DNA of 32,000 nucleotides from Pasteurella multocida (GTDB lineage Bacteria > Pseudomonadota > Gammaproteobacteria > Enterobacterales > Pasteurellaceae): positions 1,110,001-1,142,000 of the forward strand of contig NZ_LT906458.1 in assembly GCF_900187275.1 (NCBI RefSeq). Reading direction: 5' to 3'. The notes beneath the pieces are model-generated. The model ran no database searches. It saw nothing but the letters and a program-made list of their open reading frames with translations, and was not told the origin of the DNA. A program made the translations under genes and the position numbers. Position 1 is the first letter of the stretch. Each line of letters begins with the position of its first letter. Below, one piece after another: positions 504-4,952 of this stretch.

Positions 504-1874
504 ATGACAACTTTCACTCCAGAACTGCTCTCTCCAGCCGGTTCACTCAAAAACATGCGCTATGCCTTTGCTTATGGTGCTGATGCGGTGTATGCCGGAC
601 AACCACGTTATAGCTTGCGTGTACGCAACAATGAATTTAATCATGCTAATTTAAAAATCGGGATTGATGAAGCCCACGCCTTAGGCAAAAAATTCTATGT
701 CGTGGTCAATATTGCGCCACATAACTCCAAGCTGAAAACCTTTATTCGCGATTTAGAGCCAGTCATTGCCATGGGGCCAGATGCGTTAATTATGTCCGAT
801 CCAGGCTTAATTATGTTAGTGCGTGAACATTTCCCAGATATGGCGATTCACCTTTCGGTACAAGCCAATGCGGTCAACTGGGCTTCGGTAAAATTCTGGA
901 AACAAATGGGCTTAACCCGCGTGATCTTATCCCGTGAGCTTTCGCTTGATGAAATTGCCGAAATTCGTCAGCAAGTGCCAGAAATGGAAATTGAAGTGTT
1001 CGTGCATGGGGCATTATGCATGGCGTATTCTGGACGTTGTTTATTATCAGGCTATATTAATAAACGTGATCCAAATCAAGGCACCTGTACCAATGCGTGC
1101 CGTTGGGAATACAGTGTAACCGAAGCCAAAGAAGATGAGATCGGCAACATTGTGAATGTGGGTGAAGAAATTCCAGTGAAAAATGTAGCACCGACACTTG
1201 GCGAAGGCGACACCACCAGTAAAGTATTTTTATTAGCAGAAAGTCAACGCCCTGAAGAACAAATGTCTGCCTTTGAAGATGAGCATGGTACTTACATCAT
1301 GAACTCGAAAGATCTACGAGCGGTACAACATGTGGAAAAACTCACCGCTCTTGGCGTACATTCGTTAAAAATCGAAGGGCGTACCAAATCCTTCTATTAT
1401 TGTGCGAGAACCGCACAAGTTTACCGTAAAGCAATTGATGATGCGGTAGCAGGCAAACCGTTTGATGAAAGTTTGATGGATACCTTAGAATCTCTTGCAC
1501 ACCGTGGTTATACCGAAGGGTTCTTACGTCGTCATACTCACGATGAATACCAAAACTACGATTACGGCTACTCTATTTCTGAACGTCAACAATTTGTCGG
1601 TGAATTCACGGGTAAACGTAATGAGCAAGGCATGGCAGAAGTGGCAGTCAAAAATAAATTCTTACTCGGTGATGAAGTGGAAATGATGACCCCGAAAGGG
1701 AACATTGTGTTCAAGATTGAACGGATGCTCAACCGTAAAAATGAAAATGTGGAAGCCGGTTTAGGCGATGGACATTTTGTATTTTTAGACGTGCCAGAAG
1801 ATGTCCAATTAGACTACGCGCTACTAATGCGTAATTTGGTGAATACTAACACACGTCAACCACACAAAGTTTAG
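504..1874 (+). CDS. yegQ: U32-family peptidase-like protein YegQ/TrhP (tRNA ho5U34 hydroxylation factor)
   Basis: 456 aa, near-collinear with E. coli YegQ as I recall it (ELLSPAGSLKNMRYAFAYGADAVYAGQPRYSLRVRNNEF..., GALCMAYSGRCLLSGYINKRDPNQGTCTNACRWEY). Confidence 0.95.
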   Translation: MTTFTPELLSPAGSLKNMRYAFAYGADAVYAGQPRYSLRVRNNEFNHANLKIGIDEAHALGKKFYVVVNIAPHNSKLKTFIRDLEPVIAMGPDALIMSDPGLIMLVREHFPDMAIHLSVQANAVNWASVKFWKQMGLTRVILSRELSLDEIAEIRQQVPEMEIEVFVHGALCMAYSGRCLLSGYINKRDPNQGTCTNACRWEYSVTEAKEDEIGNIVNVGEEIPVKNVAPTLGEGDTTSKVFLLAESQRPEEQMSAFEDEHGTYIMNSKDLRAVQHVEKLTALGVHSLKIEGRTKSFYYCARTAQVYRKAIDDAVAGKPFDESLMDTLESLAHRGYTEGFLRRHTHDEYQNYDYGYSISERQQFVGEFTGKRNEQGMAEVAVKNKFLLGDEVEMMTPKGNIVFKIERMLNRKNENVEAGLGDGHFVFLDVPEDVQLDYALLMRNLVNTNTRQPHKV

Positions 1875-1996
1875 TCTTTTCTACATAGTCTCAAACAGGA
1901 TCTGTATCCCAGCGAATTTAGAGCGTAGCATATTGCCGGAATACAGATCCCTGTTGAGAACGTAATCAAAGCAACAGTATATTTATTATACGACAT
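1871..1996 (-). CDS. Candidate 41-aa hydrophobic, Cys-rich small protein (MSYNKYTVALITFSTGICIPAICYALNSLGYRSCLRLCRKD)
   Basis: Hand translation; the ORF is below the track cutoff. ATG at 1996 is preceded by AAGGAG with a 6-nt spacer, and lies 16 nt after the stop of the HlyD-like fragment. Its stop overlaps the yegQ stop convergently. No homology recognised, and the ORF contains a long inverted repeat. Confidence 0.25.
   Translation of the reverse strand: MSYNKYTVALITFSTGICIPAICYALNSLGYRSCLRLCRKD
1889..1959. repeat. Long imperfect inverted repeat (about 19-nt arms, 33-nt spacer) at the yegQ/islet boundary
   Basis: tctcaaacaggatctgtat (1889..1907) versus atacagatccctgttgaga (1941..1959). The arms differ by two single-nt indels. 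No flanking T-run on either strand, so it is not a canonical intrinsic terminator. Confidence 0.7.
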
Positions 1997-2012
1997 ATTA
2001 TTCTCCTTAATA

Positions 2013-2281
2013 TTATTTTGTGGTTTTTAATGGGCTAAATAAGTAATCTAATACACTGCGTTTACCTGTTTTAATTTCCGCAGAAACTGCCATACCTGCC
2101 ATTAATTCCACTGTTTTTCCTTCAATCAATAGAGTACTTTGATCAATTAAAATTTACTTCGAAATGTTCATCTCCTTTTTCAAGAATTTGTATTGAATCT
2201 ACTCTTTCCTCCGCTTTAGGAGTTAATTTATTTTTATATAAATATGCATTTGTGATTTCTGTTGCTGTTGGTAATGCCATT
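2013..2281 (-). pseudogene. Truncated, frameshifted 3' fragment of a HlyD-family type I secretion membrane-fusion protein
   Basis: The minus-strand translation reads MALPTATEITNAYLYKNKLTPKAEERVDSIQILEKGDEHFEVNFN*. After a 1-nt frame change in an A/T run it continues IDQSTLLIEGKTVELMAGMAVSAEIKTGKRSVLDYLFSPLKTTK*. The segment GMAV(T/S)AEIKTG.RSV..YL.SPL is the characteristic HlyD C-terminus. Roughly 350 N-terminal residues are missing. Confidence 0.6.
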
Positions 2282-2306
2282 TCTTCACCTCACTATTATT
2301 TATTTT

Positions 2307-2759
2307 TTAAAAAGAAACCTCTTCCCTTAATTCTCCACAAGGCGTATATTCGAGATAAAGCACTCTATGATCAGGTTTAAAATTCCCAACATAATGTCTT
2401 AAATATTCAATTCTTATATAACCATATCCATCATCATCTGGATAGCCATCTATTCCTTCATTAATAAATCTTGTTAATTTACAACAATCAGGGTTCATCT
2501 GTTTAAACTCCTCAACACTAGCATAACGTTTTATTTCGGTTGTTGTGCCATCTGGTTCAAAAACACCTGACGGCATGGTGGATACCACATATTCAACCCC
2601 TCTATCGATCAACTCTTGCTCGGTATAAAGGTTATGGATATATTCCCATTTGTCAAAACAATAACCTCGTCTTTCTTGTATGGTAATAAATAAATAGATT
2701 GAAAGGATAAACAATATGAACCATAAAAAATATCTCTTTCCTTTATTTTCTTCTGCCAT
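2307..2759 (-). CDS. Paralogue 1 of an uncharacterised 150-aa protein with an N-terminal hydrophobic anchor and 4 conserved Cys (possible immunity-type protein)
   Basis: Intact ORF with an RBS-like GAGGTGGAAG before the ATG. Hydrophobic stretch FLWFILFILSIYLFITI. About 85% identical to the neighbour by hand alignment. No family recognised. Confidence 0.75.
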   Translation of the reverse strand: MAEENKGKRYFLWFILFILSIYLFITIQERRGYCFDKWEYIHNLYTEQELIDRGVEYVVSTMPSGVFEPDGTTTEIKRYASVEEFKQMNPDCCKLTRFINEGIDGYPDDDGYGYIRIEYLRHYVGNFKPDHRVLYLEYTPCGELREEVSF

Positions 2760-2908
2760 CTTCCACCTCAGTACCCATGATCCATATTACTGCATGCTTG
2801 AAATAGGGAATCTACGCATTCCATCCCTTTCAGAGTGAATTGATTTTTAGATAAAGATAAATTCCTCATTATTGTTGCTGTTGGTAATGCCATTTCTTCA
2901 CCTCACTC

Positions 2909-3370
2909 TTAATTTTTTGAAAAAGCCGCCTCTTCCCTTAACTCTCCACAGGGCGTATATTCAAGATAAATCACTCTATGATAAGGTTTTAGATTCTCAA
3001 CATAATGTCTTAAATATTCAATTCTGACATAACCATATCCATCATCATCTGGATAGCCATCGCCTCCTTCATCAATAAAGGTGGTTAATGTACAACAAGC
3101 TGGGTTCATCTGTTTAAACTCCTCGACACTCGTGTAACGCTTTACTTCTTTTATTGTGCCATCTGGTTTAATAACACCTGACGGCATGGTGGATACCACA
3201 TATTCAATCCCCCGATCAATTAACTCTTGCTCAGTATAAAGCTCATGAATATATGCACGTTTGTCAAAACAATAACCTCGTCTTTCTTGTATGGTAATAA
3301 ATAAATAGATTGAAAGGATAAACAATATGAACCATAAAAAATATCTCTTTCCTTTATTTTCTTCTGTCAT
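2909..3370 (-). CDS. Paralogue 2 of the same uncharacterised membrane-anchored Cys-containing protein (153 aa)
   Basis: Intact ORF with the same GAGGTGGAAG-ATG start context. The first ~105 nt are identical to paralogue 1 except for one base. Confidence 0.75.
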   Translation of the reverse strand: MTEENKGKRYFLWFILFILSIYLFITIQERRGYCFDKRAYIHELYTEQELIDRGIEYVVSTMPSGVIKPDGTIKEVKRYTSVEEFKQMNPACCTLTTFIDEGGDGYPDDDGYGYVRIEYLRHYVENLKPYHRVIYLEYTPCGELREEAAFSKN

Positions 3371-3499
3371 CTTCCACCTCTTGGTTATTTAACGGGTTTA
3401 AACTTTAGCATATGATTCATCATATACTTAAAAACTACTACTTGGTATTTCACAAACTTTGTTTAATTTGTGATCCTATTCAAAACTTTTCTAAAACCC

Positions 3500-3508
3500 A
3501 CCGCACTT
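3500..3508 (-). repeat. Hin-type USS core
   Basis: Exact ACCGCACTT. Confidence 0.9.
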
Positions 3509-3530
3509 TTATTACCGCTCTCGCAAACTC

Positions 3531-3626
3531 TCATCTCATGTGTTTTTTTAATAGGCTAAATAAATCATCCTTTAGAATGCGTTCATTTTTACGCTCGTTC
3601 TCACACAATACGCTTACATATGATTG
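3531..3626 (-). pseudogene. Second, more decayed remnant of the same HlyD-family 3' end
   Basis: The minus-strand translation QSYVSVLCENERKNERILKDDLFSLLKKHMR* aligns with GKRSVLDYLFSPLKTTK* of the fragment at 2013..2281. The DNA tttttaataggctaaataaatcatcc (from 3546) is about 75% identical over ~45 nt to tttttaatgggctaaataagtaatct (from about 2025). A stop codon lies immediately upstream, so only ~30 codons survive. Confidence 0.35.
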
Positions 3627-3637
3627 TTAAAAAAATG

Positions 3638-3665
3638 TTGCATTTGTTATTTTTGTGTGTATAAT
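3638..3665 (+). promoter_or_regulatory. Near-consensus sigma70 promoter (TTGCAT, 16-nt spacer, TATAAT) with an upstream A-tract
   Basis: TTGCAT at 3638..3643 and TATAAT at 3660..3665, read directly. Confidence 0.55.
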
Positions 3666-3671
3666 CCGACA

Positions 3672-3740
3672 CATACCCTAAAAAGTATGACTCCAAATAT
3701 ATTTTCGCCCTTTCGTCTTTCTTGAAAGGGCTTTTTTTTT
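3672..3740 (+). ncRNA. Candidate ~70-nt small RNA or leader transcript upstream of queA
   Basis: It is bounded by the promoter above and an intrinsic terminator: gccctttc (3707..3714), gaaagggc (3724..3731) and a T9 run (3732..3740). The only ORF inside is a 12-codon one (MTPNIFSPFRLS*) with no RBS. Ends are approximate. Confidence 0.35.
3707..3740 (+). terminator. Rho-independent terminator
   Basis: An 8-bp GC-rich stem, a 9-nt loop and a run of 9 T. Confidence 0.75.
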
Positions 3741-3860
3741 GTCCAAAATCATCTCAATTCGATACTAAACAACAAAATCTGGATTTTTCCTTGTGCAAGA
3801 GCGGAATTCACACTAGACTTACGCCCACGATTTTTTAGATAACTTTTTATAACCCTATTT

Positions 3861-4952
3861 ATGCGTGTTTCTGACTTTTATTTTGATTTACCCGATGAGC
3901 TGATTGCTCGTTACCCAAAACCGGATCGCACCGCTAGTCGCTTATTACAACTTAACGGCGAAAATGGTGAGATTACCCACCGCACTTTTGCTGATATCCT
4001 TGATCAAATTCATGAAGGCGACTTATTAATTTTTAATAACACGCGCGTGATTCCTGCAAGGATGTTTGGACGTAAAGCCAGTGGCGGTAAGGTGGAAGTG
4101 TTGGTCGAGCGGATTTTATCCGACACACGCTTTTTAGCCCATGTGCGCTCCTCAAAAGCACCGAAAGAAGGGGCAGAACTGTGGTTAGGCGAAGATAAGT
4201 TAGGTGAACATCATGGTGTCAAAATGATCATGGTTGCGCGCCATGATACCTTATTTGAATTAGAAATCGCGCAAAAACAGACCGCACTTTTAGACGTGTT
4301 ACAGCAAATTGGGCATATGCCATTGCCCCCTTATATTGATCGCCCTGACGAAGAAGCGGATAAAGAACGTTATCAAACCGTTTATAACAAAGTCCCTGGC
4401 GCGGTTGCGGCACCAACTGCCGGCTTGCATTTTGACGATGCTTTATTAGCACAACTCAAAGCCAAAGGGGTTAACTTTGCTTTTGTGACTTTACATGTTG
4501 GCGCAGGCACATTTCAACCGGTGCGCGTCGAGCAGATTGAAGATCACAAAATGCACGCAGAATATGTGGAAGTACCACAAGAAGTGTGTGACGCGATTAT
4601 TGCCACGAAACAAGCAGGCAAACGTGTGATTGCTGTGGGCACCACTTCAGTTCGTTCCGTCGAGAGTGCAGCATTAGCGACGGAAGAAAAAGGCGAACAT
4701 GCCTTAATTACGCCTTATTTTTCCGATACGTCAATTTTTATTTATCCAAGCAAAAGCTTCCGCGTGGTGGATTGTTTAATTACGAACTTCCACTTACCAG
4801 AAAGTACACTGATTATGCTGGTTTCCGCTTTTGCTGGCTATCGCCATACTATGCATGCGTACCAAAGTGCGGTCGAAAATCGCTATCGTTTTTTTAGTTA
4901 TGGCGACGCGATGTTTATCAGCAAAAATCCTCACGTTAATGGGCTTGACTGA
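3861..4952 (+). CDS. queA: S-adenosylmethionine:tRNA ribosyltransferase-isomerase
   Basis: 363 aa. [19 protein letters not shown]..., GHMPLPPYI and [10 protein letters not shown] motifs are typical of QueA. Confidence 0.97.
3979..3987 (-). repeat. Hin-type USS core (inside queA)
   Basis: Exact ACCGCACTT. Confidence 0.9.
4281..4289 (-). repeat. Hin-type USS core (inside queA)
   Basis: Exact ACCGCACTT. Confidence 0.9.
4865..4873 (+). repeat. Hin-type USS core (inside queA)
   Basis: Exact AAGTGCGGT. Confidence 0.9.

Follow-up and report, generated by a model that had tools for sequence, protein, structure and literature searches.

Tandem ORF1-type immunity-like genes among the remnants of an ApxIVA-class RTX toxin locus in Pasteurella multocida

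Introduction

Orphan immunity is familiar as a principle in bacterial competition. In the polymorphic-toxin systems (cdiA-CT/cdiI, Rhs and MafB/MafI), immunity genes stand in tandem, each with a piece of a toxin gene beside it, downstream of the main toxin gene or in its place, and their mosaic alleles are kept in strains that no longer produce the toxin. Here we describe a 2-kb islet that sits between a U32 peptidase gene (yegQ-like) and queA in a 32,000-nucleotide stretch of the Pasteurella multocida genome (contig NZ_LT906458.1; the whole stretch is referred to below as the window) and that carries two small tandem paralogues. We consider it probable that this islet arose by deletion from a type I secretion locus that served large antibacterial toxins of the ApxIVA/FrpC repeats-in-toxin (RTX) kind, and that the retained paralogues neutralise incoming ApxIVA-type toxins.

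The described system closest to these genes is the apxIV operon of Actinobacillus pleuropneumoniae (orf1 and apxIVA), which, according to the title of a recent report (Slivenecka et al. 2025, Microbiol Res 292:128043; title cited in PMC13422351), is an antibacterial toxin-immunity pair. Earlier work (Schaller 1999, as summarised in PMC3034196) reported that recombinant ApxIVA needs ORF1 for its haemolytic and CAMP activities. The parallel in Neisseria meningitidis is FrpD, which binds the N-domain of FrpC with a Kd of ~0.2 nM (PMC5233953); FrpD is an outer-membrane lipoprotein to which PMC3034196 and PMC5233953 ascribe a putative, adhesion-related role and no immunity role.

Results

Both paralogues are encoded by intact open reading frames (ORFs) on the minus strand, paralogue A (2307..2759) specifying 150 residues and paralogue B (2909..3370) 153 residues. 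They are 84.7% identical, repeat as a tandem unit of ~611 nt and have the Shine-Dalgarno sequence GAGGTGGAAG directly 5' of the ATG. An N-terminal hydrophobic segment (KGKRYFLWFILFILSIYLFITIQ) and cysteines at positions 34, 92, 93 and 141 are common to both products, in agreement with a preliminary description of this DNA that had noted two intact paralogues with an N-terminal anchor and four conserved cysteines. In the AlphaFold2 (AF2) model of paralogue A (predicted local distance difference test, pLDDT, 83), residues 6-30 form a membrane helix, after which comes an alpha/beta domain. The nearest proteins were P. multocida entries with 99-100% identity, and close homologues were found only in Pasteurella and Bisgaard Taxon 45, where paralogue B was 96% identical to the immunity gene product imm1 and 90% identical to the toxin-adjacent imm2.

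Comparison of the paralogues with Pfam, NCBIfam and PDB sequences gave no significant match; when all PDB sequences were searched with a profile, a chitin deacetylase (E 0.94) was the sole hit at E<=1. An exhaustive phmmer search of 1.84 billion representatives recovered ~20 distant clusters from other Pasteurellaceae and a few other Proteobacteria, all sharing the anchor and the GYC, LYTEQELID, EEFKxxNPxCC and CG motifs; in an alignment of 21 sequences (A1), G32, C34, C92, C93 and C141 were invariant. One of these clusters was an A. pleuropneumoniae protein present on hundreds of contigs (P0042; phmmer E 3.3e-9), whose gene lies 20 nt 5' of the 1805-residue apxIVA with its self-processing module (SPM). 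On one side of the two is an mrp-like gene with a ParA/MipZ domain, on the other a lacZ-like gene of glycosyl hydrolase family 2. This position 5' of apxIVA, between the mrp-like and lacZ-like genes, identified P0042 as ORF1 of the apxIV operon, and BLASTP of paralogue B against it gave 33% identity (E 7e-17). The suggestion in the preliminary description that these proteins might be something entirely new does not hold.

A survey of homologue neighbourhoods, which the same description had proposed, showed that those Pasteurellaceae and Kluyvera homologues for which the 3' sequence read was long enough lie directly 5' of toxin genes or stubs. Profile searches of the fetched loci placed an immunity-like gene directly before a toxin gene in P. 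oralis (L002), in Bisgaard Taxon 45 (L003; CP182107), in Kluyvera sichuanensis (L012; NZ_JABBJF010000037.1) and in L006-L008 and L013/14; full toxin genes follow in L002, L003, L006, L012 and L013, and the window retains 5' stubs only. The gene pair thus occurs in Pasteurella, Taxon 45, Pasteurellaceae isolate LIM206 (contigs labelled 'rhodentibacter'), A. pleuropneumoniae and K. sichuanensis. With their similarity to ORF1, their anchor and four-cysteine domain (G-Y/F-C, NPxCC, C-G) and a toxin stub directly downstream, the window paralogues belong to the ORF1 type. In K. sichuanensis the ORF1-like gene is followed by one for a 2186-residue protein with an ApxIVA-type N-domain (L012 1515-8734; E 1e-71), and as Kluyvera is an enterobacterium the module is not confined to Pasteurellaceae.

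The remnants that surround the paralogues lie on the same strand and derive from toxin and exporter genes. Stub no. 2 (2143..2280; 138 nt, 45 codons), which starts MALPTATEITNAYLYKNKL... and translates as MALPTATEITNAYLYKNKLTPKAEERVDSIQILEK..., is the 5' end of an ApxIVA-like toxin gene, matching residues 1-43 of both the 2003-residue Taxon 45 toxin and the 1308-residue P. oralis toxin and positions 3-42 of the ApxIVA N-domain profile (E 1.3e-4); ApxIVA itself begins MTKLTMQDVTNLYLYKTKTLPK. Stub no. 1 (2768..2893), a 41-codon ORF from the 5' end of a gene of the same kind, was recognisable only at the DNA level and by its first seven residues, MALPTAT; it overlaps repeat D2, in which 2195-2305 and 2808-2918 are 81% identical, and the same 41-residue ORF is present in P. 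oralis (L002 15821-15946). The preliminary description had recorded this repeat between the paralogues as a copy of the first ~100 nt of an HlyD fragment; the repeat exists, and it is the toxin 5' end (41-45 codons) and not HlyD that is repeated.

Stub no. 2 is fused out of frame to a 3'-terminal fragment of hlyD (2013..2153). Positions 2013-2129 encode the last 38 residues of an HlyD-type adaptor (MIEGKTVELMAGMAVSAEIKTGKRSVLDYLFSPLKTTK), which aligned to positions 380-414 of the 422 in TIGR01843 (type I HlyD) with 41 bits (E 1.1e-10), a score below the curated cut-off of 208 bits and not full-length, marking a gene fragment and not a functional member. At the nucleotide level 2020-2153 was 94.8% identical to the 3' end of the intact Taxon 45 hlyD (L003 9698-9831), and the same chimera of toxin 5' end and hlyD 3' end was found in P. 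oralis (L002 16428-16716). Thus an HlyD 3' end that is significant in profile searches is present, as originally proposed, although it is not the frameshifted HlyD that had been envisaged: as 2143-2280 is a toxin 5' end, this element is an out-of-frame fusion of a toxin stub with 134 nt of the hlyD 3' end. A further hlyD 3'-end remnant (3513..3626; ...ENERKNERILKDDLFSLLKKHMR*), correctly recognised earlier as a more decayed copy, was 79% identical over 39 nt to 2024-2062 and aligned to the relatives' hlyD 3' ends. Its counterpart in Taxon 45 lies 5' of the first RTX gene (L003 ~300-400), and the window remnant is the left arm of the recombination described below.

One remnant had been missed. 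Positions 1974..2010 (minus strand) cover the start of an RTX toxin gene of a second type, ~8 codons (MSYNKYTV) together with the sequence upstream of them, and were 89% identical to L002 2314-2350, the start of an 815-residue RTX protein (MPDNKYTV...); in P. multocida locus L016, MSDIKYTVTFK... stands at the equivalent place. A second toxin/immunity-like pair shares these loci (L002 744-4775 and 16826-17443; L016 11466-16976; L022 5318-9018; window 1974-2010), its RTX proteins starting M(P/S)D(N/I)KYTVTFK, with GH(L/I)WYVL ... H(S/N)CV(H/S)YVF in the N-domain, and each being preceded by a membrane-anchored protein of 196-213 residues with an ACY(D/H)F motif. Neither the N-domain of these second-type proteins nor the 196-213-residue partner had a match in Pfam.

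Comparison of the yegQ-queA junction among relatives, another step that had been proposed, revealed an intact locus at the same chromosomal site in Taxon 45, adjoining a near-identical U32 peptidase of 456 residues. The gene order there is a decayed hlyD-3' remnant, RTX protein 1 (1838 residues), an ATP-binding cassette (ABC) transporter (706 residues), HlyD (479 residues), immunity 1 and immunity 2 (152 and 154 residues) and the ApxIVA-like toxin (2003 residues). In P. oralis an intact locus lies elsewhere, next to rnt, and after it comes an orphan array that matches the window array collinearly over its full length (85% identity); in P. canis the rnt site holds a version with a single gene. 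The window-type array occurred in 19 of the 26 P. multocida contigs with an identical peptidase, where it was the commonest configuration, and in the remaining contigs the alleles were combined differently or a second-type toxin was present in broken form, accompanied by a 208-residue membrane protein of its own. Locus L022 (GCA_016820295.1, JAFBLE010000004.1; labelled P. multocida) keeps the ABC transporter, HlyD, an immunity gene, a stub, the 208-residue protein and toxin 2. The intact locus in L003 and the exporter kept in L022 support the earlier proposal that the islet is what is left of a type I secretion toxin locus, its toxin and exporter lost and its duplicated immunity-like genes kept, as do the homology to ORF1, the gene neighbourhoods and the significant HlyD match.

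The junctions were located with a blastn map and a six-way alignment. Read against Taxon 45, the window follows the decayed hlyD remnant 5' of RTX1 and switches at ~3530-3512 to the sequence downstream of the true hlyD. Such a switch marks recombination between the two hlyD-3' repeats, with the loss of ~9.4 kb.

The ABC transporter and HlyD of L022 appeared intact and were 98% identical to those of Taxon 45, and they are accompanied by a long RTX toxin ORF of the second type; active producers of RTX bacteriocins may therefore exist among the strains labelled P. multocida. A 390-residue toxin fragment, also labelled P. multocida, shared 98% identity with the toxin of Taxon 45. The Taxon 45 RTX proteins (L003 548-6064 and 11089-17100) contain four to six near-identical repeat modules of ~160 residues (GADTYIFSKGHGQD...), and repeats of this type collapse short-read assemblies, which is probably the reason that toxin genes stand on short partial contigs in many P. 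multocida drafts, for example the 1220-nt P0086 contig.

A conserved leader (3371..3512, minus strand) separates the hlyD stop from the first immunity gene and contains a Hin-type uptake signal sequence (USS), an inverted repeat and a Shine-Dalgarno sequence; it was ~90% identical to the hlyD-to-immunity intergenic region of L003 and L002. The USS (3500-3508) stands directly 3' of the hlyD stop in the aligned intact and fragment copies (L003 ~9865; L002 ~9870 and ~15205) and in the window copy 5' of paralogue B, and the second hlyD fragment of the window (2013-2153) diverges before it; the USS therefore moves together with the immunity cassette. The perfect 7-bp inverted repeat (ATATGAT-TC-ATCATAT, 3410-3425), ~40 nt 5' of paralogue B, is kept in the same region of L002 and L003 and could be an operator. 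As frpDC is iron-regulated, a Fur box was looked for 5' of the array; the best match (12/19) was equalled in 228 of 300 shuffles and was rejected, and the inverted repeat is not a Fur box.

Our analysis of the partner toxins in relatives showed large RTX proteins of 1300-2000 residues with an SPM. From residue 1 onwards the N-domain of the Taxon 45 toxin shared 43% identity with ApxIVA (E 6e-98), PF26745 (SPM), HemolysinCabind and HCBP_related were matched by the toxins of L002, L013, L016 and L018, and the Asp-Pro self-processing motif LYDPLVLDLDGDGIETV was found in L002 and L003. An SPM with an Asp-Pro site together with RTX repeats places the relatives' toxins in the clip-and-link class (FrpC/ApxIVA), of which no such feature is left in the window. 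For the AF2 model of the toxin N-domain (pLDDT 71), the top PDB matches were Pectocin M1 (E 0.014, probability 0.96) and PaeM (E 0.067), which suggests a weak but specific colicin-M-like resemblance of the modelled fold; at the sequence level the N-domain had no colicin M match, and RTX-repeat hits only were returned. The N-domain of ApxIVA is reportedly colicin-M-like, in agreement with this resemblance, and ORF1 reportedly periplasmic and Cmi-like.

Selection on the paralogues was assessed from the ratio of non-synonymous to synonymous substitution (dN/dS) in pairwise comparisons of 12 distinct alleles from seven loci, all of which were intact. Overall, dN/dS ranged from 0.07 to 0.34 at dS values of up to 0.9; paralogues A and B compared with each other gave dS 0.27, dN 0.078 and an omega of 0.29, and values against the other alleles were 0.20-0.34 for paralogue A and 0.08-0.32 for paralogue B. 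The paralogues are thus under purifying selection. Variation among alleles was mosaic and clustered at about residues 60-80 and 95-110, and the cysteines and core motifs were constant.

The islet is flanked by two core genes on the plus strand, the U32 family peptidase gene (504..1874; PF01136, PF16325) and queA (3861..4952; PF02547, E 3e-132). Its GC content (1875-3860) was 33.4% in comparison to 43.4% for the peptidase gene and 45.1% for queA, and GC at third codon positions was 0.25-0.27 in comparison to 0.39-0.40 in the flanking genes; the contrast is real, and smaller than the hand counts of 28-30% against 40-55% in the preliminary description. The single USS of the islet had been noted there as well, at the right edge, and its scarcity carries no weight: with 12 USS in the 32-kb window, ~0.75 are expected per 2 kb and one is present, which makes the argument uninformative, and USS depletion as a sign of foreign origin was rejected on the same density grounds. 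The region downstream of the peptidase gene (1875..1973, assigned to no strand) forms the right border of the islet and contains a hairpin with 25-nt arms (inverted repeat I1, 1889-1959); in the blastn map 1701-1950 was 94% identical to Taxon 45 L003 17119-17368, which there lies 3' of the toxin gene.

A compact element resembling a transcription unit lies between the islet and queA (3638-3740, plus strand). It consists of TTGCAT-16 nt-TATAAT (3638-3665), followed ~40 nt on by a strong hairpin (3707-3731) and a T9 run, and its 78-nt RNA folded at -18.5 kcal/mol (z = -4.5) and reached the threshold of no Rfam family; an Rfam scan of 1700-4000 likewise gave nothing at the gathering score. The flank that holds the element is conserved in Taxon 45 (L003 1-437), and the element could be a small RNA or a queA leader/attenuator.

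Discussion

In an ancestral layout like that of Taxon 45, the old hlyD-3' remnant would have recombined with the 3' end of the true hlyD, with loss of RTX1, the ABC transporter and HlyD, and a second junction, common to P. oralis, would have fused the toxin at about codon 43 to another hlyD 3' end. Two intact immunity-like genes remain, each with a ribosome-binding site and a short toxin 5' stub. If expressed, as we infer, their products would be small proteins anchored in the inner membrane by the N-terminal helix, with the cysteine-containing alpha/beta domain probably facing the periplasm in the predicted topology. By homology to ORF1, this domain would act at the periplasmic face of the inner membrane and block an incoming toxin domain, namely the putatively colicin-M-like N-domain of ApxIVA-type toxins that arrive from outside. 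Type I secretion bypasses the periplasm of the producer, so that immunity matters against toxin from outside, as it does in a non-producer, and the paralogues probably shield a non-producing strain from Pasteurella and Taxon 45 producers.

Several results weigh against this neutralising role. The paralogues have only 33% identity to the sole family member with a published immunity report, and that report is represented here by its title. The AF2 model of the paralogue had no significant PDB match, and Foldseek and hhalign found no link between the paralogue and the colicin M immunity protein Cmi (PDB 2XGL, 4AEQ; the hhalign query was identical in sequence to both entries). The structural matches of the toxin N-domain to Pectocin M1 and PaeM are weak (E ~0.01-0.07, template modelling score 0.22-0.28). 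A sigma-70 consensus scan 5' of paralogue B on the coding strand found no site, and the region held fewer sites than its shuffles.

This last result can also be interpreted as a sign that the paralogues are functionless relics, kept because they hitch-hike with the essential gene on either side and undergo gene conversion with each other; the surroundings are all debris, strains differ in copy number and alleles, the mosaic alleles fit gene conversion and no promoter consensus was seen 5' of the array on the coding strand. Such neutrality is hard to reconcile with 12 of 12 distinct alleles being intact at the low dN/dS values reported above, with four cysteines and core motifs that are invariant down to 30% identity and with the Shine-Dalgarno sequences retained by both genes, and it was the neighbouring toxin and hlyD pieces that were reduced to stubs and not the immunity ORFs; we regard it as improbable. 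The paralogues might instead be toxin accessory factors (activators, chaperones or membrane tethers), as in the original ORF1 proposal, to which the reported need for ORF1 in recombinant ApxIVA activity (PMC3034196) and the very tight binding of FrpD, encoded directly 5' of its RTX partner, to the FrpC N-domain (PMC5233953) lend some substance. Strains without toxin, however, leave such a factor without a client, yet the duplicated genes are kept under purifying selection and are retained in most P. multocida contigs examined although the toxin is lost; moreover, FrpD structures were absent from the hits when PDB sequences were searched with the profile, and the later literature, as far as its title states, gives the apxIV operon a toxin-immunity role, so that an accessory function appears highly improbable.

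Alternatively, the paralogues could serve an unrelated envelope function and their RTX linkage could be incidental, given that Pfam, NCBIfam and PDB gave no match and that weak relatives in metagenome-assembled genomes from outside Pasteurellaceae (L009, L010) have no detectable ApxIVA-type domain downstream. We give this very little credence, since the Pasteurellaceae and Kluyvera relatives with enough 3' sequence directly precede an ApxIVA-type toxin gene or stub; the exception is L004, where in the profile search of fetched loci the nearby RTX gene carried a different N-domain. Neutralisation of incoming ApxIVA-type toxins therefore remains our preferred interpretation of the paralogues.

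Comparison with described systems shows how the islet departs from each of them. With ORF1-ApxIVA it shares the protein family, the four cysteines, the N-terminal anchor and, in relatives, an immunity gene ~20 nt 5' of a toxin gene with an ApxIVA-like N-domain and an Asp-Pro self-processing module. The window differs in that the toxin is cut to stubs of 41-45 codons and the immunity gene is duplicated, which makes its genes orphans, and in its chromosomal site; in addition, the Pasteurella/Taxon 45 pair lies inside its own ABC/HlyD export locus, whereas the apxIV locus has no B/D genes. FrpD-FrpC is alike in having a small envelope-anchored protein encoded directly 5' of a self-processing RTX protein, but FrpD is an outer-membrane lipoprotein without similarity to the paralogues. 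The paralogues resemble Cmi in their N-terminal membrane helix, a cysteine just after it, a small alpha/beta domain and a cysteine near the C-terminus; as there is no detectable sequence or Foldseek similarity, only an analogous architecture is claimed. Unlike colicin M, which is a plasmid-encoded colicin, the relatives' toxin is a domain of a type I-secreted RTX protein of 1300-2000 residues.

The preliminary description had compared the islet to C39-ABC/membrane-fusion-protein bacteriocin loci such as haemocin, where an ABC transporter and a membrane-fusion protein are linked to a small membrane immunity protein. The toxin is no such small C39-processed bacteriocin or microcin: the 706-residue ABC proteins of L002 and L003 have no cysteine in their first ~140 residues, a double-glycine leader peptide is lacking, and the proteins exported are large RTX proteins that show HemolysinCabind and RTX_C features. 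The immunity gene does not merely adjoin the ABC/HlyD export genes; it stands upstream of the toxin gene. In this respect the islet is the mirror image of the polymorphic-toxin orphan arrays, and the arms that repeat in it come from the 3' end of hlyD and the 5' end of the toxin gene. The ApxIVA-type toxin domain is N-terminal, which puts the immunity gene upstream and makes the part of the toxin gene that is kept a 5' stub.

This layout allows a more tentative proposal, which we put forward as speculative and rather unlikely, that the hlyD 3' end (with its USS) and the toxin 5' stub are not simply debris but the homology arms of a mirror-image cassette system that provides an immunity repertoire against the ApxIVA-family toxins of co-resident Pasteurellaceae. 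As each immunity gene is bracketed by two conserved arms, natural transformation and homologous recombination could add, delete or swap alleles. Under this proposal, immunity alleles and toxin N-domains would be exchanged between Pasteurella species and sites, with yegQ-queA used in one group and der-rnt in another. If it were true, P. multocida would maintain an acquired, diversifying repertoire, an 'orphan immunity island' for type-I-secreted RTX bacteriocins.

To our knowledge, P. multocida is generally regarded as lacking RTX toxins. One source describes ApxIV as specific to A. pleuropneumoniae and used as a diagnostic marker (PMC13503222). The islet shows otherwise, in that the ORF1/ApxIVA module has spread through Pasteurella, Taxon 45, LIM206 and even Kluyvera, and most P. 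multocida contigs examined keep the immunity half only. An orphan, duplicated and decayed ORF1/ApxIVA context was not described for P. multocida in the literature searched. The locus documents a route of decay, recombination between repeated hlyD 3' ends, and ~thirty clusters of 'hypothetical protein' could now be named. By comparison across genomes, these findings independently support the recent view of ApxIV-class 'clip-and-link' RTX proteins as antibacterial weapons, and they predict that orphan immunity genes would confer on P. multocida resistance to the toxins of its neighbours in the shared upper respiratory and oral niche of animals.

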